From an uncultured Candidatus Saccharibacteria bacterium (GTDB lineage: Bacteria; Patescibacteriota; Minisyncoccia; UBA6257; 1-14-0-10-44-23): a stretch of DNA of 64,000 nucleotides. Location of the stretch: positions 142,196 to 206,195 of the forward strand of contig CAYMXN010000002.1 in NCBI GenBank assembly GCA_964394435.1, in the 5' to 3' direction. The notes below the pieces were generated by a model. The model saw only the letters and a list, made by a program, of their open reading frames with translations, did no database searches and was not told where the DNA came from. Made by a program: the position numbers and the translations under genes. Below are positions 3,690-51,227 of this stretch, one piece after another; positions within the stretch are counted from its first letter, which is position 1; every line of letters begins with the position of its first letter.

Positions 3690-3857
3690 GATTTTGGGGT
3701 AATTTGCTATTTTAGAATTTTGTTGTATTGTATCTTCCGAAAGTCGCTCAAATGTGCTAGTATATTAGCTATTAGTACTTTAGCTAGAAAACTGAATATT
3801 GCCAAAAAAGTCCTATCCCGCATCCTGTCCAGCACTCTTGCTTTACCGGTTGTCCTG

Positions 3858-4811
3858 ATGCTCGCGGGGGTTGTTTTAGATTTAGCTGTAATCATTCATC
3901 CGAGTGGTGCACAGGCTGTATATGGAGGTCCGGAAGTTGCTGTTCCACTTGGTGAGTCATTTTTCGACAGTGCGTACATCGCGGACAACTTTCCTGATGA
4001 CCTCGCTCTTTCTACGAGTGATCAGACGGCTGGTTTCTTGCTGCTTGATGAGTCGGCGGCTTTTGGGTCAAATGGGCCACTGGCTGGCAATTTGGCAAAT
4101 CGTGACGGCGTACTCACCTATCGCATTCAAAAGGGAGATACGCTTTCCTCGATTGCTGCGAGTTTTGGCATTTCTTTAAACACGGTCCTTTGGGCAAATC
4201 GTAGCTTGAGTGCGACCGCGCTCAAGACTGGTTCACAAATTGCGATTTTGCCTGTTTCTGGTGTTTTGCATCGCGTCAGCGAGGGCGATACCGTTCAATC
4301 AATCGCTGCGCTCTATGGAGTCCCAGCTGAACGGATACTCAAGTATAACAAAAATGTAACGCTCGCCTCGATTAATCAGGATTCGGTTATCGTACCAGGG
4401 GCAAAGCCGCAACAAAATGTTGCTCTAAATTCAACGACGAAACTTCCGAAGCTTACTGGATACTTTGCCGCTCCGACGAAGGGATGGATTTTTAAAACGA
4501 TTCACGCGAAGAACGGTGTTGATATTGCTAATGTGTGTGGGACTCCAGTGTACGCTTCGGCTGATGGTTTAGTTGCGGAGTCTTCTGATGGGTGGAATGG
4601 TGGGTATGGTAATCATATTGTCGTTGATCATCCAAATGGAACGCATACACACTATGCTCACCTTTCGAAGCGCATTGTTGATGCGGGTGATTATGTTTCT
4701 CAGGGTCAGTTGATTGGTGAGATCGGTAATACGGGTAATGTGCACGGGCCAACGGGCTGTCACTTGCACTACGAGGTTTGGGGCGCGGTTAATGAGCTAG
4801 GCGAAAACTAG
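3858..4811 (+). CDS. Secreted LysM-domain M23 family metallopeptidase (peptidoglycan hydrolase); start uncertain (track ORF begins 3645 but overlaps helicase and lies upstream of the putative promoter)
   Basis: Two LysM repeats (YRIQKGDTLSSIAASFGISLNTVLWAN; HRVSEGDTVQSIAALYGVPAERILKYN) and M23 motifs (GNHIVVDHPNG..HYAHL; GNTGNVHGPTGCHLHYEV); extended -10 TGCTAGTAT at 3755-3763. Confidence 0.7.
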   Translation: MLAGVVLDLAVIIHPSGAQAVYGGPEVAVPLGESFFDSAYIADNFPDDLALSTSDQTAGFLLLDESAAFGSNGPLAGNLANRDGVLTYRIQKGDTLSSIAASFGISLNTVLWANRSLSATALKTGSQIAILPVSGVLHRVSEGDTVQSIAALYGVPAERILKYNKNVTLASINQDSVIVPGAKPQQNVALNSTTKLPKLTGYFAAPTKGWIFKTIHAKNGVDIANVCGTPVYASADGLVAESSDGWNGGYGNHIVVDHPNGTHTHYAHLSKRIVDAGDYVSQGQLIGEIGNTGNVHGPTGCHLHYEVWGAVNELGEN

Positions 4812-4857
4812 TTTCCCCTCTCAAACTTTGCTAGTATATAGGTAATACATATTATTT

Positions 4858-5205
4858 ATGATTGAACAAAAAGTACTCGCACAGTTAAAGAGTAAGCTTG
4901 AGGCGACCAAGATTGAACTTGAGAAGGAGATGGCTGAACTCTCTAAAAACCCAGATATGGGTAGTGACGTCGATGCATTTGATGAAGAGACTGATGAGGC
5001 GGAAGAGTTTTCGGCTAACATGGGTATGCTCGAGTCAGTTAAGGAACGCTACCAGTCAGTAAAGGATGCGCTTGCAAAGATGGCTGCTGGTACTTATGGA
5101 TACTGCGAGAAAAGCCACAAAGAGATTGAGCTTGAAGTATTGCTCGCTGATCCTGAATCGAGGTACTGCAAGGAGTATAAGGTGAAATTGAATACAAAAG
5201 CTTAA
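4858..5205 (+). CDS. DksA/TraR-family-like small regulator (degenerate zinc finger, acidic coiled-coil tip)
   Basis: 115 aa, N-terminal coiled coil, acidic tip DVDAFDEETDEAEE, C-terminal C-x17-C remnant of C4 finger (YCEKSH...RYCKEY); family assignment tentative. Confidence 0.4.
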   Translation: MIEQKVLAQLKSKLEATKIELEKEMAELSKNPDMGSDVDAFDEETDEAEEFSANMGMLESVKERYQSVKDALAKMAAGTYGYCEKSHKEIELEVLLADPESRYCKEYKVKLNTKA

Positions 5206-5218
5206 CCGTTTAAGCTTT

Positions 5219-6766
5219 ATGACAAAGACTAGTTTTTCAAAAGTCTTGTCGGCAGAGCTTGAAGGTATTGAGGCGCGAGCTATTGAGGTGGAGACCGACG
5301 TGTATGTCGGTCTCCATTCGTTTTCAATTGTCGGACTGGCTGATAAAGCTCTTTCGGAATCAAAAGAGCGTATTAATGCGGCACTTAAGAATAGTGGTAT
5401 TAAGCCGCCAAGCAGAGAGAATAAAAAGATTATCGTAAATCTAGCCCCTGCTGATGTTAAGAAGACGGGATCGCAGTATGATTTGCCGATCGCACTTGGA
5501 TATCTATTGGCGAGTCAGCAACTTAAGCCGTTTGATGGCTCACAAAAACTATTTGTTGGTGAGCTCGCGCTTGATGGCGGTGTTCGACCGGTGAGTGGCG
5601 TGCTTAATATTGCCCGACTTGCTCGCGAGCGAGGAGTGCGAGAATTGTTTGTGCCACTTGAAAACGCGGCAGAGGCGGCGATTATACCCGAGCTCGAGGT
5701 CGTACCCGTCGAGCATTTAACGCAGCTTATCGCCCACCTTGAGGGGCGTAAGCGTATTGCCCTTCAGCCAAGTACGCGCATCGACCGTGAGCAGGCTGCT
5801 CATCCGGTTGATATTGGAGATGTGAAGGGGCAAGCTCATGCGAAGCGCGCGCTGATGATTGCGGCTGCTGGCGGGCACAATCTATTAATGGTTGGTCCAC
5901 CGGGTACGGGTAAGACGATGCTCGCACAGTCATTGACTTCGATACTCCCCCCACTTGAGCTTGAGGAGATTATCGAGGTGAGTCAGATTTATAGCTCGGC
6001 CGGACTTTTGAAAAATCAGGCGTATGTTGCGCATCGGCCGTTTCGTTCGCCTCACCAGACTTCTTCATCGGTTGCGATTATTGGTGGCGGACAGACTCCG
6101 CGCCCGGGAGAGATTAGCTTGGCGCATCGCGGTGTTTTGTTCCTGGATGAGCTACCGGAGTTTCGACGTGATCTGCTTGAGGCACTCCGACAGCCGCTAG
6201 AAAGCGGCAAGGCGATTGTTACGCGCATCAAGAATAATCTCACCTTCCCCGCCCATTTTATCTTAGTGGCGGCGATGAATCCGTGTCCGTGCGGGTATTA
6301 TGGTGATAGTGAAAAAGCTTGTCAGTGTTCGATGAATGAGATTTTGCGGTATCAGAAAAAGATCTCTGGTCCTCTATTAGACCGTATTGATTTACAGATT
6401 CATGTTCCGCGGACAAAAATTGGGGAGCTGCGAAGTGTCCAAGTTGGTTTAAGTGATGAGGCGAAGCGGATCAGGGAGCAAGTTCTTCTAGCGAGGCGGA
6501 AGCAGCGTGAACGACTTGGCTCGCGGAAGCACATCTTTACTAATGCCGAAATGAGCTCAAAAGATGTTGATGCTCTGGTTGAGCTTACCGCAGAAGCGGA
6601 AGATTTTATTAAGCAGATATTTGATAAGTCGATGATTAGTGCGCGTGGGTATTATCGGATTTTAAAAACTGCGCAGACGATTGCGGATGTTGAAGGAAGT
6701 AAAGTTGTGAGTAAGCCGCATATCGCTGAAGCATTTAATTATCGGTTGCGAGAGCAAGCTGCTTAA
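5219..6766 (+). CDS. comM: YifB/ComM family Mg-chelatase-like AAA+ ATPase
   Basis: N-terminal Lon-protease-like domain, Walker A GPPGTGKTMLAQ, ChlI-type AAA+ core, conserved C-terminal domain; typical 515 aa length. Confidence 0.85.
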   Translation: MTKTSFSKVLSAELEGIEARAIEVETDVYVGLHSFSIVGLADKALSESKERINAALKNSGIKPPSRENKKIIVNLAPADVKKTGSQYDLPIALGYLLASQQLKPFDGSQKLFVGELALDGGVRPVSGVLNIARLARERGVRELFVPLENAAEAAIIPELEVVPVEHLTQLIAHLEGRKRIALQPSTRIDREQAAHPVDIGDVKGQAHAKRALMIAAAGGHNLLMVGPPGTGKTMLAQSLTSILPPLELEEIIEVSQIYSSAGLLKNQAYVAHRPFRSPHQTSSSVAIIGGGQTPRPGEISLAHRGVLFLDELPEFRRDLLEALRQPLESGKAIVTRIKNNLTFPAHFILVAAMNPCPCGYYGDSEKACQCSMNEILRYQKKISGPLLDRIDLQIHVPRTKIGELRSVQVGLSDEAKRIREQVLLARRKQRERLGSRKHIFTNAEMSSKDVDALVELTAEAEDFIKQIFDKSMISARGYYRILKTAQTIADVEGSKVVSKPHIAEAFNYRLREQAA

Positions 6767-18272: not shown

Positions 18273-19343
18273 ATGGCTAAGGAGAAAAAGGAGGATAAAA
18301 AGAAGGAAAAGGAAGAGTTTAAAGACATTGCGAGTTTAATGGAGGATTTACAGGGTCGTTTTGGTGAAGGTGCGCTGATGACCCTTGGTGATGCTCGTAA
18401 AACCAATGTCGATGTGATTCCGACTGGGTCGTTTTCACTTGATTTGGCCCTTGGTGTTGGTGGTTTGCCAAAGGGGCGTGTTGTGGAAATTTATGGGCCA
18501 GAAAGCTCGGGTAAGACGACTTTAGCGCTTAACGTAGTAGCACAGGCGCAGAAGCTTGGTGGGCGTGCGGCCTTTATCGATGCCGAGCACGCACTTGATC
18601 CTGAATATGCGGAAAAGCTTGGCGTGAAAGTTAAAGAGTTACTTATTTCTCAACCTGACAATGGTGAGGAGGCGCTGAACATTTTAGACAGCTTAGTTCG
18701 TTCGGGCATGCTTTCGGTTATTGTCGTTGACTCGGTCGCAGCTCTTACGCCGCGCGCTGAAATCGAAGGAGAGATGGGTGCGCAGTTTATGGGTCTCCAG
18801 GCCCGTATGATGAGTCAGGCGCTTCGTAAGCTGACTGCGATTACTGCTCGGTACAATGTGCTGATTATCTTCATTAACCAGATTCGTATGAAGATTGGTG
18901 TTATGTTTGGTAATCCGGAGACGACGCCGGGCGGCAACGCGCTTAAATTCGCCTCTTCGGTTCGTATTGATATCCGTCGTATTGCTCAAATTAAGAAGGG
19001 CGAAGATGTAGTAGGTAATCGAGTGAAGGCGAAAGTGGTAAAAAACAAAGTCGCTCCCCCATTTCGTGTTGCGGAGTTTGATATCAGTTATGGGCAAGGT
19101 ATTTCGTATGTCGGTGATGTGATGACGACCGCGATTAAGTATGGAGCAGTTACTAAGGCTGGTGCGACCTATAGCTTTGAGGGACAGAAGATTGCCGTAG
19201 GTATTGAGAACGCGACTAATAAGCTCAAGCAGGATGTGAAGCTCTTGCGAGATATTGAGAAGCGAACTAGAGAGATTGCAGCTAAAGTGGTGGTGGCTGG
19301 CGAGGGTCCAGAGGCCCCTGAAGACGCGAAAGAAGAAGAGTAA
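18273..19343 (+). CDS. recA: Recombinase RecA
   Basis: Walker [11 protein letters not shown]1/L2 loops, near full-length identity pattern to RecA family. Confidence 0.95.
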
Positions 19344-19350
19344 TGAGTTT

Positions 19351-19385
19351 TAAAATCCCGCCTCACTAGAGGCGGGATTTTTAGT
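19351..19385. terminator. Bidirectional rho-independent terminator shared by recA (+) and the cgs-like gene (-)
   Basis: AATCCCGCCTC-ACTA-GAGGCGGGATT 11-bp stem flanked by A/T runs on both sides. Confidence 0.75.
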
Positions 19386-22300
19386 TATTGCAGTTCTGGC
19401 GGAGCGAGAAGTACTTCTATTGTATTTGTTTTTTGATTGTTTGTGAGATGTATTTTGTTTTCAGTTAGTATTTTTCCATTTAGCTTTACTTGAGCAACCC
19501 CGCGGGTTGCTTGGTATGGATTCTGAATGTTGATTTGGTACGTTATGTTTTTGTGTATGAGGGTTAGCTGTGCTTCTTTCCAGTCACGCGGAATACTTGG
19601 ATTGATGGTGAGTACTTCTTCTTTAATGGTTATGCCGAATAGATATTCGATGATCGTTCGGTAAAATACTCCAGCTGAACCTGTGTACCAAGTCCAACCT
19701 CCCCTGCCGGGGTATGATGGTTCGGCGTAGATGTCAGAAGCAAGTACGTATGGTTCGGTTCGATACTGTTTAACCTCTTCGCTGGTTTCGGTTCGTTTGA
19801 GCGGGTTGATGAAATCAAGAATCATTTTTGCTTGGTCGGCGCTTCCTGTTGCAAAGAGTGCCTGACTTAACCAGAGTGCAGCATGGTTGTATTGCGCTCC
19901 ATTTTCCCGGACTCCTGCCGGGTAGTCTTTGAGGTATCCTGGGTCAATTAAGCCCTCGATAACTGGTGGGTTGATGAGGCGGACGATTTGATCGACTGGA
20001 TCAACGAGCTGCTTTACTGCTGAAGCGAGTGCCTTTTTGATGTGATCTTCTCGCTTACCACCTCCGAGTACCGCCCATGATTGAGTTATTGAGTCGATCC
20101 GATACTCTTTATTACGGTGTGATCCGAGTGGTGCGCTACTGTCGAAGTATGCGCGTTTATACCAGTTTCCATCCCAGGCGTGGCGCTCGAGTCCAACTTC
20201 TAATTTCTCATTTAGTTGCGTTAGCCATTCAATAGTTGTTTGGTCGTTTCGTTCTTGGGCGATTTGGATGAAGCGCGTACTTACGGCGCGTAAGAACCAG
20301 CCGAGCCAAACACTTTCACCTTTTCCTTTGATTCCGACATTACTTAGTCCATCATTCCAGTCGCTTTTGCCGATAAGTGGTAGATTGTGCGTTCCGAGTT
20401 GAGCAGTTTTTTTAATCGCGCGTAAGCAGTGTTCGTATAACGTATATGCTTCTTCGGTTTTTTGTGGAATACCAGCCCACTCTGGATAGTCTTCGAAGTG
20501 TGGTACTGGTGATTCGAGGAATGGGAGCTTGAGATCAAGCAGCTGTTTTTCATTGGTATTGTCGATGTAGTTGCTTATGACATACGGGAGCCAGATTTGG
20601 TGGTCGGTTGTGATTGTGCGAACACCGAAATCGTTATGCTCGTGCCACCAGTTTTGCGCATCACCTTCTTTGAATTGATGGGCTGCGGCCCGTAGAATCA
20701 TCTCTTTGGTTTTTTCTGGTTGAGTGTGTATAAGAGCGAGGCTATCTTGGAGTTGATCTCTGAAGCCAAAAGCTCCTGAAGGTTGATAATAACCTGTTTT
20801 GGCGACCAAGCGAGAGGTTATGGTCTGATAGATGAGGCGATAGTTAATCAGCGCATCCAGTTGCTCATCTGGTGTTTTGATCTGAATGTTTTTAGTTGTT
20901 TGCTGCCAGTATTGCGCGAGTTCGTTTTTGATTTTTTCTAGGCCGTGCATCGTACGGTAGTGTTTGATGCAGTTTCTCGCTTCGTGAATGTTTTTGGCTT
21001 GCCCGATGCGTACCTGGATTGATTTAGTTTCTCCAGGGAGGATGGTTATTTTGCTTTGGACTGCAGCGCAAGTGTCGACTCCTGTTTTGAGCGTATCTGA
21101 AAGTTCGGTTCGATAGAGTGCGGCTGGATTTTTTAAGCTTTGGCCGCGTCCAATAAACTCCTCTCGGTTATTCGTCGCTTTAAACTCACCCTGATTTATA
21201 TCAATAAAGACGAGTGTTGATTGGAACGAGTTGCTGCGATAGACGTTTTTGACAGTAAGGGCTTTTGTTTCACTGTCCCTTTCTATTTCGAGAAGGTTTT
21301 TAGTGTGTTGGCGATGAACTCCGAGTGATGGTTCGAAGTATCCAGTAAGTGAGATAGTGCGAGGTTTCGAGCTCGTATTTTTGAGCTGTATGTCGTAGAT
21401 TTTAATGCTGTCTTTGCTTGGAACGATTAGTGTCGTGGTGTGGTGAACTCCTTGGTAGGCGTGTTCAAATGAGCTGTAGCCAAGTCCGTGACGAATTATG
21501 TAGTTGCCCTTGGTTGGAATTGGTAGTGGCGTCGCACTCCAAAATTCTCCTGTTTCCTCGTCGCGAAGATAGATCGCTTCGCCGCTGTGATCAAGGAGTG
21601 GGTCATTGGACCAGCGTGTGAGATGATTGTCGTAGCTGTCTCCTGCCCAGGTGAAGCCCGATCCGCTTTCGCTTACTACAAATCCAATTTGCTCGTTAGC
21701 AATAATATTGGTCCATGGGGTTGGCGTTTGCAGTTGCTCGTTAGTAGTAATGACGTATTCGTTGTGCTGTTGGTCGAACCCACCATATCCGTTAAAGAAT
21801 TTTAGATCTTTTGGTAGGCGCAGAATTGGTGTCTCTTTTGCAAGGAGTAGTTTTGCAACTGGTTCAAGATGGGATGGTAGTGGGTGTGCTCCAGATTGGC
21901 TGGCGAGTTGATTTTCAAACGTTCCTTGCTTGCTATCCAGCTGAACGCTTGCTGCGTAGATGAGTGCCTGATTGTCTTCTGCGGGAATGAGGTCGGCTTT
22001 GATGTGAAATACTCTTCCGAGTTCTCCTTTTTCGTTTGGAGACTCAAGGGAGCGCATTAAAAAGTCGATTTCGTCGTGGAGCGTTTTGATGTAGCTTGTT
22101 GGCTGCTCGTTGAGAATTACTAAATCAAATGGGACTCCTTTTGCGTGGAGGTATTTGCGGCATTGTAGTACTTGCTTAGCGAAGGAGATATCGGCGATGT
22201 CAGATATTTTAAGGATAAGAAGCGGAAGAACGCCCGAAATACCGTATTTCCAGAGCGGGTTGCCGGTTGGCATTGTCTCAATAGTGAGCGGTTTTTGTTG

Positions 22301-25300
22301 TGGGTTTATGCCGCTGATAAGACGGGAGGCGATTTCTTGATATTGCATCGCTCGAGTTGCCGACATATTAAGTTGGCGTAAGACAGCGTTGCTTTGTTTT
22401 GCGATTGCGAACTCTTTAAATGCATCGCCGTTGCGATATTGCGCAATGAGCTTAAGAAGCTCTTCCCTGCTGTGAGCTGCGATATAGATGGAGAGAACGT
22501 GTACTTCGTGGTTAGGCGGGACAGCGATTGTTTTTTTAAGGCTGGCGATTGGGTCGAGTGGGTACTCTTTTTGTGGTTCGGTGTATATCTCGGTAAGGAT
22601 GCGCGGAGATTTTAAGCTGCCGTGGCGTCCCAAAAACATTTCGCGACTCGTTTGGTAGTCAGCGTGTTCCTTTGATTTAGTGTTTTGGACGAGGAGGTGC
22701 GCAAAGTAGATTTTTTCTTTTCTGTTTTGAGGGTGATGCCTTGAGAAGATCAGCGCTTCGAGCTTTTTATCAAATTCGGCTTTTACGAATAGTTTTTGAA
22801 ACGCACTGTGATGCAGGTCTTGGTCAGGAAGGGCGAGTGAGACTTCGCTGTATGTAATCAAGTCTATTTTTTTGGGCTCATCCCCTTCGTTATTGATACG
22901 TATATTACGCATCTCAACGTTTTGTGTTGGATGTACGACGACGGTTAGATTTGTTTTTATGTCTTCAGTAATTTGTTCAAACTCGGCTTTGTTTTCCGAA
23001 AAGATAATCGTTTTCTTTTTATTAGACTTGATTGGTTCGTGAGTTGGCGACCAAGCTGTTTCTTTATTTTGTTCGCGAAGGTATATAAATGAACCGTATT
23101 GTTCGGTTGTTGGGTCTGATTTAAAGCGAGTGAGTGCGATATTGCCAAACTTACTCCAGCCGGCGCCGCTGTTACTTATTCCGACTGTATAGGTTGTATT
23201 TCCGATGATCGCGTACCTTGGAACTTCTGTTTTGAGCGGAATATACTGTCCAGCTTCGGTATCTGTAGCTGATGTTTTAGGTTCGATTTCAATTTTAGCG
23301 ACTGGTGTAATTGGGCGCAGTGGAACAGCGGTTGGCATCTTTTCCTCAAGTAAGAGGCTACCGGTAGCGGCTAAGAGGTCTTGTTGCATGAGGGAGTGAA
23401 TTCGCCCATTAAATACCGCGTTGGTCAGCGAGGCGACTACGAATCCCTGGTGGTGGGCGTAGTGCGTTTTAACTGGGGCGCCATATTTCGCTCGTTTGCC
23501 GTTCGTAGTTGTGTAGTCGATCGCGTCATAGAAACCGTAGCGTCCCCACGCCCCTTCTCTGATGAGTCGCTTTAGGTTCTTTACGCTTTTTTGTGGAGCG
23601 ATTCGTAGTGAGAGCGCGGTAGTGTATGGGGCGACAACAAGATAATCCCCTAGTCCGCGTTTAAGTCCAAGTTCGGGTACGCCGAAGATTTGGTATTGGT
23701 AGTTTTGGTTGAGATCGAGCAAGTTAAATCCAGACTCGCCCATTCCCCAAGGGATTTTAAATTTCTTCGCATAACGCATGTGGCTGGTTACTGCAGTTTT
23801 CGCACATGCGCCGAGAACGCTTTCTGGGTGTGGGTCGAGGAAGATGAGTGAGGTTAGGTATTCGAACAGCGACCCTCCCCAAGAAATAAGAGAGACCCCT
23901 GCGCTTGTGCGGAACGATTTTCTGCCGAGATAGAACCAGTGTTTTTGGGGAACTTGATTTTTGAGAATAGCGACGAAGCTAGCGAGGTTAGCTTCAGAGG
24001 CTAAAAAGTCGTAGTACGAGTTGTCGATTTTGTTAAACGTTTGGTTGTAGCCAATATGGAAGAGTCCACGTTCCTTGTTGTATAAGAAACTAAAGTCCGC
24101 TTCTTCAAACAGCGTGGTACAGGTGGTGATATGTTTTTGGTAGTTTCTGTATAGCACCTCACCTTTGCGTTCGCTATATGAGACCGCATTTTTGATTTTA
24201 GCGGTCCAGGCTGCTAGTTTTTCTTGATCAGTGCCGGTAAGATTTGCGGTTGCAAGGAGTTGTTCGTTCTCGATTTTGGCGATTTTCTGACTCATCACCC
24301 TTTCATTTAAGTCGCTAATCGTTGGTGCGCTTGCAAGGTATTTACGCATCTCGTTGTATGCCGTTTTAAACGTAGCGCTCGCCTGTTCGAGATATATCTC
24401 TGGAAATTCCGCGCCGACTGTTTTATATCCCCAGAGTTCTTTTATTGTTTTCTCATGATCGGCGACAATTGCCTCGAGGTGTTCGGTCCAGAAGATAATA
24501 TCACTTATTTTTTCAGTACTCTCCGGCTCTCCTTTTTTCTCTATATAGCTGGCTATTTCAGCGAGTAGTTCTTTGCTGTGCGTAAGCGCTTTTTCAATTG
24601 AGCCTTGATTAGCTTGAGCTACCTCCCTTTTTATTTTTTCTGAAGTTTTTCCGGTTTGTTTTTGGATGTGCTTAATAATCAAACGAAGTTGTTTATCGTT
24701 GCCATTTTTTTTAAGAGCGGTTGCACACTCTTCTTCGATAACTCCGCAGAGGTCGAGAAGACCCTCGATGTCTTTTGTGCGGATAATCGGTTCGTTAGCC
24801 ACTGACCAAAGTCCTTGGCGAACTGCTATAAGGGCGATGAGGAAGTTTGCGCTATCAACGGTTGAGACGTATTGCGGGGTGGTCGCTTTCAGGGCTTCGA
24901 TATCGTACCAGTTATAAAGATGTCCCTTGAATCGATCGAGTTTGGTAATGCTCGTAAGTGAGTTTCCGATTTTCTCATTGAGTCCGGCGATACCAAGGTA
25001 CCCAAAGTCACGCGCTGATACGAGCGACATTAGTAGTGCGCCCAGGTTTGTTGGGGAGGTCGTCGATTGACTGCTTATTCTCGGCTCTTCTTGGAAGTGA
25101 TCAGGGATTAGCCAGTTGTGTTCTTTAGTAGATAGCTCGATGAAGTAGCGGATTGTTTTTGCCGCTATTTTACGCAGTGTTTGTTTTTCTTTATATGAAA
25201 ATGTTACAGACAGATCGCGAGAGGTTGAGAGTGTGTAGGCGATGAGTGGTGAGAGGAACCAGGTTCCTATAAACGTATACGGTGTTATCGCAACAGTTCC

Positions 25301-28111
25301 ATTTTGTATAAGTAGCCATAGTATAAAAAGTGTAATTGGTTGAGTGAGGACCATCGCTCGGTAGAATTCAAAAATTCCTCCGCGTAATTTTTGTCCGACT
25401 TCGTGCGCTGCGCGCCATTGGAGGAGGTGTTTTTTAGTGATAAGCTGGCGAATCAATGAGCGGATGATCGCGTCTACGGTCATAATCGCTTGATACAAAA
25501 TAAATGTCTGGCGGACGATCGTTTGCGCAATGCTCATACCTATTTCGCGGATGAGGCGAACGGTTTTTTCCTTGATGGTTAGATGGCGCTCTCTTTGGAA
25601 GATGGGCGTGAGGGCTGGAATTAAAAATGGAGCGGCTAAAATAATCGCTATATAGATAGGAAGTGCGAGGTTGTTTGGGTGCGCGAGCCAGGAGGCGATT
25701 AAGAGGAGCGTGGCTGCGACCGGGATAAGGCTCCGGCGTAGGTTGTCGAAGATTTTCCATCGATCGAGGAACGAGAAGTGTGTTTCTACTACTTTTCCTT
25801 TTGCATCTTTAATTTTTGATTTTAGCCAGCGCGTGATTTGCCAGTCGCCACGAATCCAGCGGTGGAGGCGGAGGATGTACTCGTGGTAGCGGGCTGGGAA
25901 GTTATCAAATACCTGAATATCGGTTGCTAGTCCAGTTTTGGCGTAGATTCCTTCGAGGAGGTCGTGGCTTAGGACGGTGTTGTCAGGAATGCTGTCTGCC
26001 ATTGTTCTTTCGATGGCTTTGATATCATAAATACCCTTTCCAAAGAAGATAGCGCTATCAAAAATATCTTGATATACGTCTGCTGATACGTTGGCGTATG
26101 GATCGATTCCTACCGCAAAAGAAAAGAGGCGCGCGAAGAGTGATTTTGTTGCTGATCCGAGTGGTGTGGCGACTCGCGGTTGGATAATTCCATATCCCTG
26201 GGTGATGCGGTTTGTTTTTGGGTGTATGACTGGTTGGTTGAGCGGGTGAGCGATACAGCCGATGAGCTGGGCGGCTGCCTCACGTGGGAGCTGCGTGTCT
26301 TCGTCGAGCGTGATCGCGTAGCGAACGCGAGGAATCTCTGAGTACTCCTTTTCAGTAAGAACGTAGTGTGTTTGTTTACTGCCCAGTATGAGTTGATTAA
26401 ACTGGCGGAGCTTTCCACGTTTGCGTTCATACTCCATATAGACTCCCTCGCCTGCGTTAAAAATACGCTTCTGATAGAACATAAAAAAACGTGGTTTTTT
26501 TATGGCGCCATATTTCTTGTTGAGATTCTCAATTTCCGTTTTAAGTGACCCAACGAGTTCGGCATCATCAGGCATCACTTGTGTTGGGGCGTCTTTGAAG
26601 CCAAGTAATAAGCCGTAATAAATATGCTCATCTTGATTACCAAGATAATTAATTTCCATTTTCCGGATCAACTCTTTATTGGAGGCGATGCTGCGGAGTA
26701 GTGTTGGTACGACGATAAATGTAGCGTGTTCGGCGGGTACTCCTTTGCGGAAATCGAGACGAGGGAGTTGTTTTGGAGGGATGAGATTGGTAAGGAAGCT
26801 GTTAAGGACAGTGATTGCCAAATCACTACTCAAGAGGAGTAGGAGGAGTATGTACATGATATTTCCCATTGGGTTGGCGAATGTTAGGGCGTAGAGCAGT
26901 GGAAGTGCGCCAATGATTGTTGCTATGCCGAGCGCAGAGAAGTAATAAGCGCTTGGGTGAGCTAAGAGGCTCCTGTAGAGGCGTTTTGCTAGCGGTGGGG
27001 TGTAACGGATCTCGGTTTCAAGAGTTTTTCTCCCCTTTCCGAGTAAGAGCCAGCCGATGTGCTGATTGTCTTTTTGGGCGAGCGTTATTGCTATTTTGGC
27101 GATTTCAGTTTCGGCGATGCCGGTTTGATCAGAGAGTTCGATGATCGTTCGGCGATAGATAAGGCGACTTTTTGCTTCGAGTTTCTCAAAGGCTTTTACT
27201 GGGTCTTTGGCGAGTATTTTGTCGAGTGGGTTAACTTCGTCTACAAAAACGTCCCAGCGGACCTGGTTGAGCCAGCGGAGTGAGTTGATGATATTGGTAA
27301 CGAGATTAATTTGTTTTTCGCGCCTTGCTCCTTCGATCTGCGAGAGGTTTTTGATATCAATACCCTGCTTGAGCAGGTTCAGCTTGAGCCATTTTGTGAT
27401 CGGCCTGACTTGTGCGGTTTGTTTTGGAAGTCGTTCAAGTAGTGCGATTGAAAAGTTCGCCGTAACGAACGGTTGATCTTTGGCTAACCGATTCAGTAGT
27501 TCGTGGATGCGTTCAGGCTCTTCTTCTTCGAGTGCGATTTTGGCACTTTGCGCCCAGGCTTGAGCCTTTTTAATTTCTTCGAGTGAGCTCGTAATCTCTT
27601 GTATCTTTTGGTCCATACTTTGAACCAAAATAATTTTAAGAATCATCGGCATCTCACCGAGTTCACGGAGCGTGAGTGGTGCGCGACGTTGATAGCTATG
27701 AATAAATGTTTTAAGAATCTCGTGCCCCACTTCGTTGTCTGTTTCGCTAAGCAATGCTTTTGCAATGGCATAAGCGCGTGGGATTGGATTAGCTGAAGTA
27801 CTCTCGTTAAATGGGAGTAGTCGAATTTCTTTTTTTGAGACTCCCGTGCGGATATCAGCTAGGGCGCCTTCGATAATATAAAAGTCGTTAAAAATCCATT
27901 CGACTTCGTGCGTGAGGTAGTGGAGTTCAGCTACGGTTTTGACGAGGCGTTGGTAGTTTGATTTAACCTCCTCGGGAAGTTCAAGAGCGGTTTTAATGAA
28001 GCTCTGTGCTCCTTTTGGCGAGAGTGCGATGCTGCTGGTTGATTTGAGCTCGTTGGCGAGGCGGATGATCTTCTTTTCGGCCAATGTGCTTGAGGGTGTT
28101 TGGGTTTCCAT
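19385..28111 (-). CDS. cgs: Giant (2908 aa) cyclic beta-1,2-glucan synthase-like protein (Cgs/NdvB/ChvB architecture: N-terminal membrane region, GT84 glycosyltransferase domain, central cyclase region, C-terminal GH94 glycoside-phosphorylase domain)
   Basis: Size matches Cgs (2830-2900 aa); GT84 motifs RLDFRKGVP, ERKRGKL, ITLDEDTQLPREAAAQLIGCIAHPLNQP, LHRWIRGDWQI; GH94 motifs GFRDQLQD, KSDWNDG, GESVWLGWF, RGGWTWYTGSAG; multiple TM helices between. Confidence 0.8.
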   Translation of the reverse strand: METQTPSSTLAEKKIIRLANELKSTSSIALSPKGAQSFIKTALELPEEVKSNYQRLVKTVAELHYLTHEVEWIFNDFYIIEGALADIRTGVSKKEIRLLPFNESTSANPIPRAYAIAKALLSETDNEVGHEILKTFIHSYQRRAPLTLRELGEMPMILKIILVQSMDQKIQEITSSLEEIKKAQAWAQSAKIALEEEEPERIHELLNRLAKDQPFVTANFSIALLERLPKQTAQVRPITKWLKLNLLKQGIDIKNLSQIEGARREKQINLVTNIINSLRWLNQVRWDVFVDEVNPLDKILAKDPVKAFEKLEAKSRLIYRRTIIELSDQTGIAETEIAKIAITLAQKDNQHIGWLLLGKGRKTLETEIRYTPPLAKRLYRSLLAHPSAYYFSALGIATIIGALPLLYALTFANPMGNIMYILLLLLLSSDLAITVLNSFLTNLIPPKQLPRLDFRKGVPAEHATFIVVPTLLRSIASNKELIRKMEINYLGNQDEHIYYGLLLGFKDAPTQVMPDDAELVGSLKTEIENLNKKYGAIKKPRFFMFYQKRIFNAGEGVYMEYERKRGKLRQFNQLILGSKQTHYVLTEKEYSEIPRVRYAITLDEDTQLPREAAAQLIGCIAHPLNQPVIHPKTNRITQGYGIIQPRVATPLGSATKSLFARLFSFAVGIDPYANVSADVYQDIFDSAIFFGKGIYDIKAIERTMADSIPDNTVLSHDLLEGIYAKTGLATDIQVFDNFPARYHEYILRLHRWIRGDWQITRWLKSKIKDAKGKVVETHFSFLDRWKIFDNLRRSLIPVAATLLLIASWLAHPNNLALPIYIAIILAAPFLIPALTPIFQRERHLTIKEKTVRLIREIGMSIAQTIVRQTFILYQAIMTVDAIIRSLIRQLITKKHLLQWRAAHEVGQKLRGGIFEFYRAMVLTQPITLFILWLLIQNGTVAITPYTFIGTWFLSPLIAYTLSTSRDLSVTFSYKEKQTLRKIAAKTIRYFIELSTKEHNWLIPDHFQEEPRISSQSTTSPTNLGALLMSLVSARDFGYLGIAGLNEKIGNSLTSITKLDRFKGHLYNWYDIEALKATTPQYVSTVDSANFLIALIAVRQGLWSVANEPIIRTKDIEGLLDLCGVIEEECATALKKNGNDKQLRLIIKHIQKQTGKTSEKIKREVAQANQGSIEKALTHSKELLAEIASYIEKKGEPESTEKISDIIFWTEHLEAIVADHEKTIKELWGYKTVGAEFPEIYLEQASATFKTAYNEMRKYLASAPTISDLNERVMSQKIAKIENEQLLATANLTGTDQEKLAAWTAKIKNAVSYSERKGEVLYRNYQKHITTCTTLFEEADFSFLYNKERGLFHIGYNQTFNKIDNSYYDFLASEANLASFVAILKNQVPQKHWFYLGRKSFRTSAGVSLISWGGSLFEYLTSLIFLDPHPESVLGACAKTAVTSHMRYAKKFKIPWGMGESGFNLLDLNQNYQYQIFGVPELGLKRGLGDYLVVAPYTTALSLRIAPQKSVKNLKRLIREGAWGRYGFYDAIDYTTTNGKRAKYGAPVKTHYAHHQGFVVASLTNAVFNGRIHSLMQQDLLAATGSLLLEEKMPTAVPLRPITPVAKIEIEPKTSATDTEAGQYIPLKTEVPRYAIIGNTTYTVGISNSGAGWSKFGNIALTRFKSDPTTEQYGSFIYLREQNKETAWSPTHEPIKSNKKKTIIFSENKAEFEQITEDIKTNLTVVVHPTQNVEMRNIRINNEGDEPKKIDLITYSEVSLALPDQDLHHSAFQKLFVKAEFDKKLEALIFSRHHPQNRKEKIYFAHLLVQNTKSKEHADYQTSREMFLGRHGSLKSPRILTEIYTEPQKEYPLDPIASLKKTIAVPPNHEVHVLSIYIAAHSREELLKLIAQYRNGDAFKEFAIAKQSNAVLRQLNMSATRAMQYQEIASRLISGINPQQKPLTIETMPTGNPLWKYGISGVLPLLILKISDIADISFAKQVLQCRKYLHAKGVPFDLVILNEQPTSYIKTLHDEIDFLMRSLESPNEKGELGRVFHIKADLIPAEDNQALIYAASVQLDSKQGTFENQLASQSGAHPLPSHLEPVAKLLLAKETPILRLPKDLKFFNGYGGFDQQHNEYVITTNEQLQTPTPWTNIIANEQIGFVVSESGSGFTWAGDSYDNHLTRWSNDPLLDHSGEAIYLRDEETGEFWSATPLPIPTKGNYIIRHGLGYSSFEHAYQGVHHTTTLIVPSKDSIKIYDIQLKNTSSKPRTISLTGYFEPSLGVHRQHTKNLLEIERDSETKALTVKNVYRSNSFQSTLVFIDINQGEFKATNNREEFIGRGQSLKNPAALYRTELSDTLKTGVDTCAAVQSKITILPGETKSIQVRIGQAKNIHEARNCIKHYRTMHGLEKIKNELAQYWQQTTKNIQIKTPDEQLDALINYRLIYQTITSRLVAKTGYYQPSGAFGFRDQLQDSLALIHTQPEKTKEMILRAAAHQFKEGDAQNWWHEHNDFGVRTITTDHQIWLPYVISNYIDNTNEKQLLDLKLPFLESPVPHFEDYPEWAGIPQKTEEAYTLYEHCLRAIKKTAQLGTHNLPLIGKSDWNDGLSNVGIKGKGESVWLGWFLRAVSTRFIQIAQERNDQTTIEWLTQLNEKLEVGLERHAWDGNWYKRAYFDSSAPLGSHRNKEYRIDSITQSWAVLGGGKREDHIKKALASAVKQLVDPVDQIVRLINPPVIEGLIDPGYLKDYPAGVRENGAQYNHAALWLSQALFATGSADQAKMILDFINPLKRTETSEEVKQYRTEPYVLASDIYAEPSYPGRGGWTWYTGSAGVFYRTIIEYLFGITIKEEVLTINPSIPRDWKEAQLTLIHKNITYQINIQNPYQATRGVAQVKLNGKILTENKIHLTNNQKTNTIEVLLAPPELQ

Positions 28112-42774: not shown

Positions 42775-42850
42775 TGGCACGCGCTGAAGGAGTCGAACCT
42801 CCAACCTTCGGATTTGGAATCCGGTGCTCTACCAGTTGAGCTAAGCGCGT
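42775..42850 (-). tRNA. tRNA-Trp (anticodon CCA), 3' CCA encoded
   Basis: ACGCGCT/AGCGCGT acceptor, D-arm GCTC-AACTGGTA-GAGC, anticodon loop TTCCAAA, T-arm GGAGG-TTCGACT-CCTTC, discriminator G + CCA. Confidence 0.85.
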
Positions 42851-42972: not shown

Positions 42973-43263
42973 TTATTTTTTTAACGCGTCTTTGAATCCG
43001 CCCTTGGAGTTGATAAGCGCCTTTGCGCCGCGGATTATTGTTGCGATACTCACATGAAGTTCGGCGGCGATATCGCGCTGCGGCATTCCACTCGCAATTC
43101 GTTTTACAATTTGCCAACGCGCCACGAGTTCGTGGAGCTCTGAAGGAGTAAGGAGGTCAGCAAGTAGTGCGCGAAGCGAGCTCTCGTTTTTTGCAGCAGA
43201 GAGAAATAGTTGCACAAGCTCATCCCCTTCCCGTTTTCCGATATTAGCGTTTTTGTTTCTCAT
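42973..43263 (-). CDS. TrpR-like / YerC-YecD family DNA-binding protein
   Basis: LLTPSELHELVARWQIVKRIASGMPQRDIAAELHVSIATIIRGAKAL matches Trp-repressor-like YerC/YecD fold. Confidence 0.65.
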   Translation of the reverse strand: MRNKNANIGKREGDELVQLFLSAAKNESSLRALLADLLTPSELHELVARWQIVKRIASGMPQRDIAAELHVSIATIIRGAKALINSKGGFKDALKK

Positions 43264-43528
43264 GTATCAATGTACTAGTACATTGTATATGAGCCAATAT
43301 GTTCGTCAAGTACCTATGATGCGTAATGGGTGTCTGTGCCAACAAGTTATATAGATACTTGTCTGTGTGATTTTTAGACGGGATAGATCTCGAGTATAAC
43401 CACTTACTTCTCATGCATTCGTTCACCCCCTGAAGCCGACTTGTTAGATTCGGGATGTATTCTCGGTGTCCTCGTATTCCCCTTTTATTCATAATCCGGC
43501 AAAGCGACTATTTGCCGGATTATCTATT

Positions 43529-43566
43529 GGCTAATCTGTGAAACAAATTTGTTTCACAGATTAGCC
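43529..43566. repeat. 38-bp perfect palindrome GGCTAATCTGTGAAACAAATTTGTTTCACAGATTAGCC containing everted parS half-sites
   Basis: Read directly; both halves exact reverse complements. Confidence 0.9.
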
Positions 43567-43706
43567 TCTGAAATAGAGGGTTTTCGCTGTGAAACAAAAT
43601 GTGAAACACTCTACAGTGTTCAGCTGTGTTTTTCGCGAAGTGTTTATCGTGAAACATTGTTTATCGCTTTTTTACTGTTGTTTCACGGTTTTTTTACCCT
43701 GTAATT

Positions 43707-43722
43707 TGTTTCACGTGAAACA
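43707..43722. promoter_or_regulatory. parS site 1 (TGTTTCACGTGAAACA, perfect consensus ParB/Spo0J centromere site)
   Basis: Exact match to chromosomal parS consensus tGTTtCACGTGAAACa. Confidence 0.85.
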
Positions 43723-43894
43723 ACCCGTCTTGTCGCCGCCGGATCTTACTTTCCATTTCCGGCAGATTTTTATTTCGCATCTCTAGGCACCATGCTTGCT
43801 GTTTATCGTGAAACATCGTCATTGGTTTTTTGTTTATAAACTTTGATGTTTTTCGTTAAATTGGTTCCATATCGCTTGCTTCTACCGAGATCAT

Positions 43895-43910
43895 TGTTTG
43901 ACGTGAAACA
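43895..43910. promoter_or_regulatory. parS-like site with one mismatch (TGTTTGACGTGAAACA)
   Basis: 15/16 match to parS. Confidence 0.6.
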
Positions 43911-43951
43911 CTACCATTGGCTTCTGTTTTACAATTTTTTACCCTGTAATT

Positions 43952-43967
43952 TGTTTCACGTGAAACA
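43952..43967. promoter_or_regulatory. parS site 2 (TGTTTCACGTGAAACA)
   Basis: Exact consensus; embedded in a ~230-bp degenerate direct repeat shared with site 1 (TTTTTACCCTGTAATTTGTTTCACGTGAAACA). Confidence 0.85.
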
Positions 43968-44042
43968 TGCTGGTTGGTAGTTATTGTTTTTCGATTTCTT
44001 TCTTTGCTGTAAAACATTACCGCTGTTTTTCACCCAGTTACT

Positions 44043-44058
44043 TGTTTCACGTGAAACA
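44043..44058. promoter_or_regulatory. parS site 3 (TGTTTCACGTGAAACA)
   Basis: Exact consensus. Confidence 0.85.
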
Positions 44059-44112
44059 AGTAACCTGGTAAAATTGAATTAGATTACGTTAACCATAAGG
44101 AACACATAAATG

Positions 44113-44128
44113 TGTTTCACGTGAAACA
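44113..44128. promoter_or_regulatory. parS site 4 (TGTTTCACGTGAAACA) immediately upstream of yraN
   Basis: Exact consensus. Confidence 0.85.
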
Positions 44129-44135
44129 CTGCGCT

Positions 44136-44522
44136 ATGAAAAATACCACAAGCATCGGATCGTTGGGCGAAGATATCGCTTGCGACTTTTTAAAGAAGAG
44201 GGGACAAAAAATTCTTTTTCGAAATGTTCGTCTTACGGGTGGAGAGCTGGATATTGTTTCACGTGAAACATCGGGCTTGGTATTGTTTGTTGAAGTTAAG
44301 ACTATTCAGGGTTCGGATGATACATTTCGTCCAGAAGATAATTTTTCACTTAGTAAGAAAAAGAATATGGATCGTGCCATACAGTTGTTTAGCGTGAAAC
44401 ATCCAGAATTGTTTAACGAAAAGTTGGGGTGGCGAGCTGATCTTATAACGATTCGAATTAAGAATAGCTTATTGACAGATTATAATAAAGATTGCGAAAT
44501 AAATTATTATGAAAATGTATAG
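44136..44522 (+). CDS. yraN: YraN-family (UPF0102) predicted endonuclease; start set to ATG 44136 (track GTG 44112 lies inside a parS site)
   Basis: SLGEDIACDFLKKRGQKILFRNVRLTGGELDIVSRE...VFVEVKT matches YraN/UPF0102 PD-(D/E)xK motifs. Confidence 0.7.
   Translation: MKNTTSIGSLGEDIACDFLKKRGQKILFRNVRLTGGELDIVSRETSGLVLFVEVKTIQGSDDTFRPEDNFSLSKKKNMDRAIQLFSVKHPELFNEKLGWRADLITIRIKNSLLTDYNKDCEINYYENV
44255..44270. promoter_or_regulatory. parS site 5 (TGTTTCACGTGAAACA) inside the yraN coding sequence (encodes D-I-V-S-R-E-T)
   Basis: Exact consensus in frame within CDS. Confidence 0.85.
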
Positions 44523-44652
44523 TTCGTTGCCGAATTATTGCCGGATTACTTGACAGAAAATTTTCTTACGGTAAGATGAACGTATCTGAAAGGTCGCCTC
44601 GTTGGCGGCCTTTCGTCGTATTTATTACCAAAATTAATTAATAAAAATTCAC

Positions 44653-49790: not shown

Positions 49791-49820
49791 AAAATAGGTT
49801 AACGCGCTATACTGACGGTG

Positions 49821-51227
49821 GTGTTTACTCAAGGTGCAAAAATTCATCTTATTGGGATTAAGGGTGTAGGTATGACCGCGCTCGCGCAGATTTTGCAGGG
49901 GCGGGGGTGTGTTGTTTCCGGGTCAGATGGACCGGCAACTTTTTTTACCAATGCGGTTTTAAAGAAGCTCGAAATTCCATTTTTTGAAACATTTGCGGCT
50001 GATCATATTTCTGATGATGTTGAGATTGTTATTTCTTCGGCCGCGTATCTTCGTCCGGCGCAGGGTGATCACGAAGCGCAGGCGCTTGGAGGAAATGTGG
50101 AAGTTGTAGAGGCTTTGAAGTGTGGCGTGAAGTTGCTGACGTATCCGCAGGCGATCGGGATTTTGGCAAAAGAGTATAAGGTGATCGCGGTCGCAGGCAG
50201 TCATGGAAAGAGTACGACGACCGCTCTCCTTGGTTGGATTTTAGAAAAGACCGGTATTGATCCGACGGTGATTGTTGGTACGAAAGTTAATAAATGGGGG
50301 TCGAATGCGCGCGCTGGCAGGGGTGAGTTTTTGGTTGTTGAGGCGGACGAGTATCGTGAGGCGTTTTTAAATTATGAGCCGTACGGAGCGATTATCACGA
50401 GCATTGATTATGATCATCCGGATTACTACAAGACTCCTGCTGATTATCTGAAGGCGTTTGAGAAGTTCGCGAATTTGGTTAGTCCGAAGGGATTTTTAGT
50501 TGGCTGTGGAGATGATGCGGCTGTGAAACAAATTTGTTTCACAGCGAGTAGGCGAGGGGTGCGGGTGCTTACGTACGGATCTGGTGAGCTCAATGATGTG
50601 TTTGTGGCTGATAAGGGAATTGATAAACACTTACAGATGTTTCACGTTATGTTTAGTGATAAACATTTTGCCCTAGCCGCGATCGCATTTCCTGGTCGGC
50701 AGTACATTTTAAATAGCGGGGCGGCACTTGCGACGGCTTTGCTTATGGGGGCTGATCGCACAAAGGCGGTTGAAGCGGTAAAGAGCTTCCCGGGAACGGC
50801 TCGCCGCCTTGAGGTGATTAAATCAGCGACTAAGCAAGAGCCGGCGATTATTATTGATGACTATGCGCATCATCCGACGGCGATTTCGATTACGCTTGAA
50901 GGAGTAGCGAAGATGTATAGCGGGTATAAGCTGGTCGCAGTATTTCAGCCGCATATGTTTTCGCGAACGGCTGTACTGCTCGATGAGTTTGCGAAGAGTT
51001 TTTCGATTGCGGATGAGGTTGGACTGATGGAGATTTATGCTTCGGCGCGTGAGACGGGTGGAGCTGTTTCGGGAAAAGATTTAGTTGCTAAGGCGCAGCA
51101 GTATCATGAGCACGTTACTTATTTACCGACGCACGAAGCCGGGAAGGAGTTTGTGAAACAATTTGTAAAACAAAAAGCCGTAATCGTATTAATGGGAGCG
51201 GGAGATGTGTATCGTTTAGCTGAATAG
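49821..51227 (+). CDS. murC: UDP-N-acetylmuramate--L-alanine ligase MurC (Mur ligase family); start probably the second GTG (49821), leaderless
   Basis: IHLIGIKGVGMTALAQIL N-terminal Rossmann, GSHGKSTTTALLGWIL P-loop, Mur ligase middle and C-terminal domains; TATACT -10 at 49808-49813. Confidence 0.8.
   Translation: MFTQGAKIHLIGIKGVGMTALAQILQGRGCVVSGSDGPATFFTNAVLKKLEIPFFETFAADHISDDVEIVISSAAYLRPAQGDHEAQALGGNVEVVEALKCGVKLLTYPQAIGILAKEYKVIAVAGSHGKSTTTALLGWILEKTGIDPTVIVGTKVNKWGSNARAGRGEFLVVEADEYREAFLNYEPYGAIITSIDYDHPDYYKTPADYLKAFEKFANLVSPKGFLVGCGDDAAVKQICFTASRRGVRVLTYGSGELNDVFVADKGIDKHLQMFHVMFSDKHFALAAIAFPGRQYILNSGAALATALLMGADRTKAVEAVKSFPGTARRLEVIKSATKQEPAIIIDDYAHHPTAISITLEGVAKMYSGYKLVAVFQPHMFSRTAVLLDEFAKSFSIADEVGLMEIYASARETGGAVSGKDLVAKAQQYHEHVTYLPTHEAGKEFVKQFVKQKAVIVLMGAGDVYRLAE

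Follow-up and report, generated by a model that had tools for sequence, protein, structure and literature searches.

A dense parS array interleaved with yraN as the probable chromosomal centromere of a Paceibacterota bacterium

Analysis of a 64-kb stretch of Paceibacterota DNA (hereafter, the window) revealed a dense array of parS sites located directly upstream of and inside yraN, a gene encoding a nuclease of the UPF0102 family. This array is probably the chromosomal centromere, or the main part of it, of this member of the candidate phyla radiation (CPR), at which the partition protein ParB would be loaded. A search for TGTTTCACGTGAAACA along the whole window, allowing up to two mismatches, identified nine sites, all of them within 760 bp (43641-44401), where 0.03 would be expected from dinucleotide-preserving shuffles. 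The sites correspond to the 16-bp palindrome of chromosomal parS, TGTTNCACGTGAAACA, five of them exactly (starting at 43707, 43952, 44043, 44113, and 44255), one at 15 of the 16 positions, and three at 14. A preliminary description of this DNA had reported the five exact copies as canonical parS together with the 15/16 copy, all of which were recovered here, and the three 14/16 copies (43641, 43800, and 44386) are additional to its list. The generic repeat that it had considered as an alternative finds no support within the window, as no site with up to two mismatches was detected in the other 63 kb. The elements of the array and the gene with which it is interleaved are the following:

43529-43566: perfect 38-bp palindrome with arms of 19 + 19 nt, 100% complementary, at the left edge of the array
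43536-43559: 24-bp core of this palindrome, CTGTGAAACAAATTTGTTTCACAG, with the parS half-sites swapped, tail-to-tail around AATT
43589 and 43601 (span 43589-43608), plus strand: two isolated half-sites GTGAAACA in direct orientation, from a census of half-sites
43641-43656: degenerate parS, 14/16, TGTTTATCGTGAAACA
43679: isolated half-site TGTTTCAC, from the same census
43707-43722: perfect parS within one copy of a 33-nt block (43690-43722); the homologous site is perfect in the related contig L217
43800-43815: degenerate parS, 14/16, TGTTTATCGTGAAACA; the identical variant is retained in L217
43895-43910: near-perfect parS, 15/16, TGTTTGACGTGAAACA; its counterpart in L217 is TGTTTTATGTGAAACA
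43952-43967: perfect parS within the second copy of the 33-nt block; part of a unit of about 100 nt missing from L217
44043-44058: perfect parS overlapping the -35 of a promoter-like site; conserved in L217
44046-44074: promoter-like site (TTCACG, 17 nt, TG-TAAAAT), likely the yraN promoter, with its -35 overlapped by the parS at 44043
44113-44128: perfect parS in the 5' leader of yraN, ending 8 nt ahead of the ATG at 44136
44136-44522, plus strand: yraN (UPF0102, PD-(D/E)XK nuclease with intact GELD...EVK motif; Pfam PF02021, E = 2e-15)
44255-44270: perfect parS inside yraN, in frame, read as (I)VSRET; perfect in L217
44386-44401: degenerate parS, 14/16, TGTTTAGCGTGAAACA, inside yraN in the other frame, read as LFSVKH; identical in L217

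The non-coding gap between a TrpR-family gene and yraN comprises 848 bp and holds six of the parS sites. Its right-hand 619 bp (43493-44111) showed 36.8% GC compared with 46.7% for the window, in agreement with the AT-rich intergenic segment of the preliminary description, which had also correctly placed the fifth exact site in frame within yraN, where it reads IVSRET. The direct repeats mentioned there are real too, with an identical 33-nt block, TTTTTTACCCTGTAATTTGTTTCACGTGAAACA, present at 43690-43722 and 43935-43967, although the offset between copies is 245 nt and not about 230. Two flanking repeat units contain three sites each in a common order and spacing (66/57 and 93/91 nt), and their spacers have largely decayed; across the window, pairwise identity was 93% among the 16-mer cores versus 34% among 30-nt flanks. 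The array has grown by duplication of units that hold several sites.

Support for this organization came from independent assemblies. Logan unitigs and contigs were 100% identical to the window up to 43558-43562 and from 43938 on, and they broke inside the array because its repeats disrupt short-read assemblies, with unitig ends falling within the 38-bp palindrome (5 runs) and within the 33-nt repeat. In addition, a homologous array was found in L217, an ENA contig from another sample and assembler with about 90% nucleotide identity. Every perfect site common to the window and L217 remains perfect, and two degenerate variants are identical. The unit of about 100 nt that carries the 43952 site is missing from L217, so copy number varies between relatives, and the array changes through units being gained or lost. 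Along the intergenic alignment, 62 of 64 site columns were identical (97%), compared with 136 of 204 spacer columns (67%; Fisher p = 1.5e-7). As the sites are conserved while the spacers have diverged, both in this comparison and in the flanks within the window, the parS 16-mers must be maintained by selection, and the alignment indicates that it is purifying relative to the spacers.

The relationship between the array and its gene was followed in loci of 10-20 kb fetched from relatives (numbered with L). Homologues of YraN and NusA, the latter encoded next to yraN in the window, all belonged to Paceibacterota/Parcubacteria (Liptonbacteria, Wolfebacteria, Harrisonbacteria, and Kaiserbacteria). 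Palindromes of the parS family were found just upstream of or inside yraN in 10 of 19 Paceibacterota yraN loci, among varying neighbour genes, and in all 10 array-bearing lineages a site was located no more than about 150 bp from where yraN starts. L061 was found through its parS sites, and L209 to L211 were selected through the protein footprint described below, thus showing the meaning of this footprint and not its frequency; the unbiased samples gave parS-family sites in 3 of 12 yraN loci of clade A, that of the window (L124, L198, and L208), in both loci of clade B (L261 and L262), and the footprint in 14 of 120 YraN proteins.

In clade B (Kaiserbacteria-like), the complete Paceibacterota chromosome OZ241963.1 (L061) showed seven perfect sites and a near-perfect one directly upstream of a gene confirmed as UPF0102/YraN by Pfam, with a period of about 175 nt. 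This array is located near 417.5 kb of 661,662 bp, and in two other complete relatives, ERZ25069580 ctg105479 and ERZ24894577 ctg522042, the arrays were placed near 176 kb of 847,186 bp and near 72 kb of 633,654 bp, respectively. The other two loci of this clade, selected by YraN homology alone, presented six perfect sites plus one at -519 to -140 (L261) and 10 sites at -640 to -139 in 115-nt tandem units (L262). Regarding clade A, L124 contained two perfect parS and four copies of TGTTTACCGGTAAACA upstream of yraN, and L198, the closest NusA relative (81%), contained two copies of TGTTTGCCGGCAAACA, one upstream and one in the gene, as well as a single TGTTTAACGTTAAACA. Locus L208 showed two in-gene sites, although yraN is downstream of nusA there, and parS-family sites occupy the position equivalent to that of the 44386 site in both L198 (+232) and L208 (+242). 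Arrays around yraN, with different neighbours in each case, were also present in L209 (five 1-mismatch sites), L210 (six perfect sites from -214 to +443, with a 48-nt period upstream), and L211 (two perfect sites plus variants). No sites were detected in the nine other clade-A yraN loci, selected regardless of parS. Away from yraN, no canonical site with up to two mismatches was found in the relatives' loci, and the sole strays were one variant palindrome each in L124 and L211.

The preliminary description had assigned the array to a yraN-nusA locus. Its position upstream of and within yraN holds, but the tie across Paceibacterota is to yraN and not to nusA. In 80 loci of NusA relatives (690 kb; NusA 52-83% identical), canonical sites were essentially absent unless yraN was present, and conservation of the array with nusA was rejected on these grounds. 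The relaxed motif TGTTT-N6-AAACA appeared 13 times in the same 80 loci, eight of them at or inside yraN, in four of the nine loci carrying any. As far as these samples indicate, the array goes with yraN, and not with parB or nusA, in several Paceibacterota lineages.

In relatives, canonical parS at yraN is joined by, or gives way to, a second class of palindrome, TGTTT[AG]CCGG[CT]AAACA. Ten copies were counted in Paceibacterota loci, nine of them at yraN, and none in the parS-rich loci of other phyla (873 kb); the window has none either. Palindromes of this CCGG type were located at these positions:

L124:9721-9948
L198:209 and 594
L210:9972
L211:426 and 792

The centres of the variant palindromes in L198, L124, L210, and L211 are GCCGGC, ACCGGT, and AACGTT, with only TGTTT...AAACA in common. 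The CCGG-centred palindrome may represent a changed or a second ParB-like specificity.

The array also leaves a footprint in the encoded protein. When read in frame, parS gives VSRET, and in the other frame FHVK. Among the best 120 YraN homologues, VSRET was found in 11 (0.0085 expected) and FHVK in 4 (0.057 expected), in a total of 14 proteins where about 0.07 footprints would be expected, at positions that vary from over-called N-termini to the loop after the FVEVKT strand and the variable C-terminal loop. One homologue presented two copies of the footprint exactly 16 amino acids (48 nt) apart, as an in-frame tandem. The DNA behind three of these proteins (P0070, P0073, and P0083) was checked, and the VSRET/FHVK codons corresponded to perfect parS in L210 and L211 and to a 1-mismatch site in L209. 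In the window, the likely start of yraN is the ATG at 44136; calling the GTG at 44112 instead yields a spurious MFHVKH N-terminus, as was called in the homologue P0001. Arrays of parS thus create false MFHVKH... N-terminal extensions and VSRET insertions in YraN annotations, in addition to breaking short-read assemblies beside yraN.

Canonical sites, identical at 16 of 16 positions, are kept in two clades whose YraN proteins are 26% identical, and the retention of a perfect motif across such a distance calls for a conserved trans-acting factor. To our knowledge, ParB is the only reader of the exact 16-mer, and therefore we read the array as a probable site of ParB nucleation and loading. The dedicated centromere suggested in the preliminary description is, indeed, the best supported explanation and a likely one, given the selection on the sites and their confinement to one locus. 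In the mechanism we propose, modelled on the ParABS systems studied so far, ParB dimers would nucleate on the nine canonical or near-canonical sites, and CTP-bound ParB clamps loaded at each of them would then slide along the flanking DNA. With nine such sites in 760 bp, loading could be fast and the partition complex robust, and this complex would in turn serve ParA-driven segregation and/or SMC loading; in the studied systems, loading and spreading of ParB-CTP are followed by the action of ParA and SMC (PMC7333895). The array has expanded by local duplication of multi-site units, such as the three-site unit of about 245 nt, with selection acting on the 16-mers only, and units of 48 nt would preserve the reading frame during expansion in place. 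Array and yraN are inseparable because the sites lie in the promoter, leader, and coding sequence of the gene, and both would then move together through rearrangements, unlinked from parB. Such physical interleaving is the simplest account of the link to yraN; a functional link is possible but unproven.

Several observations weigh against a centromere at this locus. The search for ParA and ParB in the window, carried out with Pfam scans of 37 of the larger ORFs (open reading frames) and with a local ParB profile on all ORFs of at least 60 amino acids, detected no ParA, ParB, SMC, or DnaA gene in the 64 kb, in line with the absence of parAB noted in the preliminary description. The profile was built from 35 ParB ORFs of other loci, one of them checked with Pfam (ParB_N + HTH_ParB + ParB_C). 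The fetched Paceibacterota loci yielded no ParB, ParA, or SMC gene either, the profile having been scanned on them, including L209 to L217, and L261 and L262 being judged from precomputed Pfam lists, in which no ParB domain appeared. No description of ParABS or of centromeres in CPR/Patescibacteria was found in the literature searched. In addition, canonical parS is missing here from many relatives that keep the synteny (L122, L125, L127, and most NusA loci), so a centromere at the yraN locus is not universal in the clade, and the different palindrome TGTTT[AG]CCGG[CT]AAACA at the same locus in relatives could point to another binding protein. Finally, the position of the array is not demonstrably origin-proximal, the window containing neither a skew switch nor dnaA nor a cluster of DnaA boxes.

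Dense parS arrays are recurrent and not exceptional. When one genome per species was scanned for pairs of perfect parS separated by 50-80 bp, at least 120 loci in many phyla were found, and among the matches listed, eight loci presented at least five perfect parS within 800 bp, for example in Lachnospiraceae (seven) and Treponema (six); the view that chromosomal sites are normally scattered singly, taken in the preliminary description, was overstated. Among the 117 listed non-Patescibacteria loci, 69 (59%) had a ParB gene within the 8-kb locus, which favours the centromere reading of the 16-mer, and yraN was present in none. The sites in parS clusters of the studied chromosomes are spaced on a kb scale. 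From 1 to about 23 sites have been counted per chromosome, in clusters (PMC7333895); the literature searched deals mostly with looser clusters, and why sites cluster and vary in number is a question that reviews list as open.

The array resembles the chromosomal clusters of B. subtilis, C. crescentus, S. coelicolor, M. xanthus, and P. aeruginosa in the 16-bp palindrome itself, in the regional grouping of copies, in the tolerance of sites within coding sequence, and in the presence of half-sites, to which ParB of P. aeruginosa has been reported to bind (PMC5961200). It differs from them in being denser (nine sites in 760 bp), in having no parB within at least 20 kb and a nearness to oriC that is not demonstrated, and in the interleaving of its sites with a single gene, yraN, an arrangement that recurs in other lineages. 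With the tandem centromeres of plasmids and phages (F sopC, R1 parC, and arrays in IMG/VR), it has in common many head-to-tail sites made by unit duplication, and regular periods as in plasmid centromeres were seen in relatives (48 nt in L210, 115 nt in L262, and about 175 nt in L061). Unlike sopC and parC, the window array has a chromosomal housekeeping context, an irregular spacing of 57-142 nt, and no adjacent partition operon, and a plasmid-type iteron centromere was rejected for these reasons, together with the lack of parAB in the window. Tandem arrays of canonical parS were also observed in at least 43 IMG/VR viral contigs (L218-L260), with up to eight sites and periods of 26-63 nt (e.g., L249:6137-6460 and L220:2833-2938). 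The ParB profile matched a canonical ParB in only one of them, no yraN was present on the 43 listed contigs, and no relatives of YraN were found in viral contigs; these are possibly phage-plasmids using host-type centromeres.

The alternative that survives best, still an unlikely one as the primary role, is that the array is a regulatory or functional module for yraN, which could coexist with a function as centromere. A ParB-family or other palindrome-binding protein would sit on the promoter, leader, and coding sequence of yraN and control YraN, or YraN itself would act at the centromere. The closeness of a site to the yraN start in 10 of 10 array-bearing lineages fits this possibility, as does the way in which the array follows the gene through rearrangements, but the interleaving accounts for co-migration on its own, in-gene sites being inseparable from the gene, and such sites are missing from about half of the yraN loci. 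The only good promoter candidate upstream of yraN is the one at 44046-44074, with the 44043 parS on its -35, and this site, the TGgTAAAAT motif, and the leader site at 44113 are all conserved in L217. The near restriction of the second palindrome class to yraN within Paceibacterota points in the same direction. A precedent is found in the OB operators of plasmid RK2, where KorB, a transcriptional regulator of the ParB family, acts at promoters, and as in that case the candidate sites overlap or flank a promoter; they are, however, canonical chromosomal parS, for which regulation is hypothetical, and the effects of chromosomal ParB on transcription are usually mild. Finally, YraN has been reported as an endonuclease that resolves the transformation D-loop with the helicase ComM (bioRxiv 10.1101/2024.02.06.579203), in a study in which parS and ParB are not mentioned.

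A broader proposal, which we put forward as a speculation of similarly low likelihood, would make the centromere and yraN a functional unit, with ParB gating yraN or YraN working at the centromere, and would add a second ParB-like specificity, evolved in the CPR, that reads the CCGG palindromes. Specificity switching is known for Noc, a paralogue of ParB that recognizes its own NBS sites (PMC7383237). As in NBS, the TGTTT[AG]CCGG[CT]AAACA palindrome of relatives has a C instead of an A beside the central CG, but its sequence differs, its copies are clustered with parS at one locus instead of dispersed, and the window has no sites of this type. Noc is a protein of Bacillota. If the proposal were true, chromosome segregation would be linked to natural transformation/recombination, and, after Noc, a second natural example of a switch in ParB specificity would be at hand.

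It is improbable that the palindromes are operators of a protein other than ParB, for instance a lineage-specific helix-turn-helix protein, with an identity to parS that would be convergent. Such a protein could account for the lack of ParB in any fetched Paceibacterota DNA, for variant palindromes with little in common beyond TGTTT...AAACA, and for the palindromes of tail-to-tail half-sites, a geometry not expected to suit a ParB dimer. However, full 16/16 identity to parS in two clades with such divergent YraN proteins is very hard to explain without the conserved helix-turn-helix of ParB, and the adjacent TrpR-family repressor has a distinct palindrome of its own, AATGTACTAGTACATT (43269-43284), unrelated to the 16-mer, for which a TrpR operator array was also rejected.

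The possibility that the region is, or adjoins, oriC, with the usual origin-proximal parS sites, is more remote. The gap is unusually large for a streamlined genome and AT-rich, and in relatives the 1 kb preceding yraN was enriched in perfect DnaA boxes (TTATCCACA), with 5 in 15.9 kb compared with 3 in 248 kb (P ~2e-6). These boxes were found in L122 (~9920), L124 (~9680), L125 (~9228), L144, and L176, and in L124 the box is followed after 2 nt by a parS site, in a pair that is duplicated 600 bp away. The window, however, has no such box there: none with up to one mismatch was detected at 43264-44111, no enrichment was seen along the window, and neither dnaA nor dnaN is among its genes in the Pfam map. 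The GC skew was positive over the whole window, on both sides of the array and even across long genes of the minus strand, and the cumulative curve climbs monotonically. Such a skew, with no cluster of DnaA boxes, places oriC outside the window, to the left and at least 43 kb from the array, and an origin within the window was therefore rejected. The only local skew switch was found in L261, where an inversion of the nusA-ppa-tig block with respect to the window mimics an origin, beside an insertion sequence (DDE_Tnp_1) that precedes the first site of the array by about 300 bp (L261:8375-9164 and 3606-5120); it was discarded as an origin since it coincides with this inversion. The origin-proximal location suggested in the preliminary description is, thus, unsupported rather than refuted.

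An assembly artefact or a neutral or mobile repeat, which could be suspected from the short-read unitigs breaking at both ends of the left half of the array and from an 18-nt direct repeat (43505-43522 and 44531-44548, 15/18 identical) around the array and yraN, is already largely refuted and has a negligible probability, considering the independent assemblies that are 100% identical across the parts they cover, the same array in the diverged relative L217, the selection on sites rather than spacers, the confinement of the motif to one place in the 64 kb, and the housekeeping genes that surround it.

Two further candidates were rejected. A CRISPR array does not agree with the irregular spacing and with repeats that are palindromic 16-mers. 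A non-coding RNA or riboswitch was discarded as Rfam models gave no match near any gathering score in the region, and only sub-threshold noise, also when E-value thresholds were applied.

A parS cluster as such is of a known kind. What is new is its embedding in yraN, the absence of linkage to parB, the in-frame insertions, and the variant palindromes, and the layout of a centromere array with yraN was not found described in the literature searched. The biology of ParABS is known almost entirely from cultivated phyla, and the results assign the likely centromere in several lineages of Paceibacterota to a defined and easily recognised locus unlinked from parB. They also illustrate the birth and maintenance of parS arrays through duplication of multi-site units, in-frame expansion in protein loops, and selection on the 16-mers only, which bears on why parS sites cluster and vary in number.

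Regarding the surroundings, the window is ordinary chromosome. It carries genes for UvrD, ComM, PNPase, ThyX, L25, RecA, RNR, FtsH, TrpR, YraN, NusA, PPase, and trigger factor, and further genes for ClpP, TyrRS, MurC, RecG, GAPDH, and transketolase, along with ten tRNAs. In the YraN alignment, E37, D39, E53, V54, and K55 are invariant, as corresponds to the PD-(D/E)XK motif (GE-x-D ... E-V-K). Both ComM (5219-6766) and RecA (18273-19343) are encoded in the window, and in L125 comM and yraN lie on opposite strands, with comM about 1.2 kb upstream and separated from yraN by two small ORFs, one of them LAGLIDADG. A single ORF of 2908 amino acids occupies 19385-28111 on the minus strand. Other features close to the array or related to its palindromes are:

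42775-42850: tRNA-Trp, which follows the TrpR-family gene
42973-43263, minus strand: TrpR-family repressor gene, divergent from yraN
43269-43284: trp-operator-like palindrome, E. coli-like, just upstream of the TrpR-family gene
50521-50544: second copy of the 24-bp palindrome, in frame in murC (49818-51227), where it encodes AVKQICFTA; the last parS lies about 6.1 kb to its left

In L122, a trpD-C-F-B-A operon begins with the homologous TrpR-family repressor gene. The murC copy of the 24-bp tail-to-tail palindrome is identical to the one at the array and lies about 7 kb from it, and a relaxed copy was found at the equivalent place in L122 (-565 from yraN). Besides these, a CCGGCAA...TTGCCGG hairpin, TAATCCGGCAAAGCGACTATTTGCCGGATTA, was detected to the left of the array (43492-43522), with a partial second copy just past yraN (44531-44548), so that the two bracket array and gene, and similar hairpins were present upstream of yraN in relatives (L198:50-85 and L135 at -378). 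Finally, the leader of nusA (44550-44652) showed a promoter-like TTGACA-16-TAAGAT at 44550-44577 and a terminator-like hairpin with a 12-bp stem and a T-run at 44587-44625, ahead of the nusA ATG at 44653; it is conserved in L217, and the hairpin could be an attenuator.

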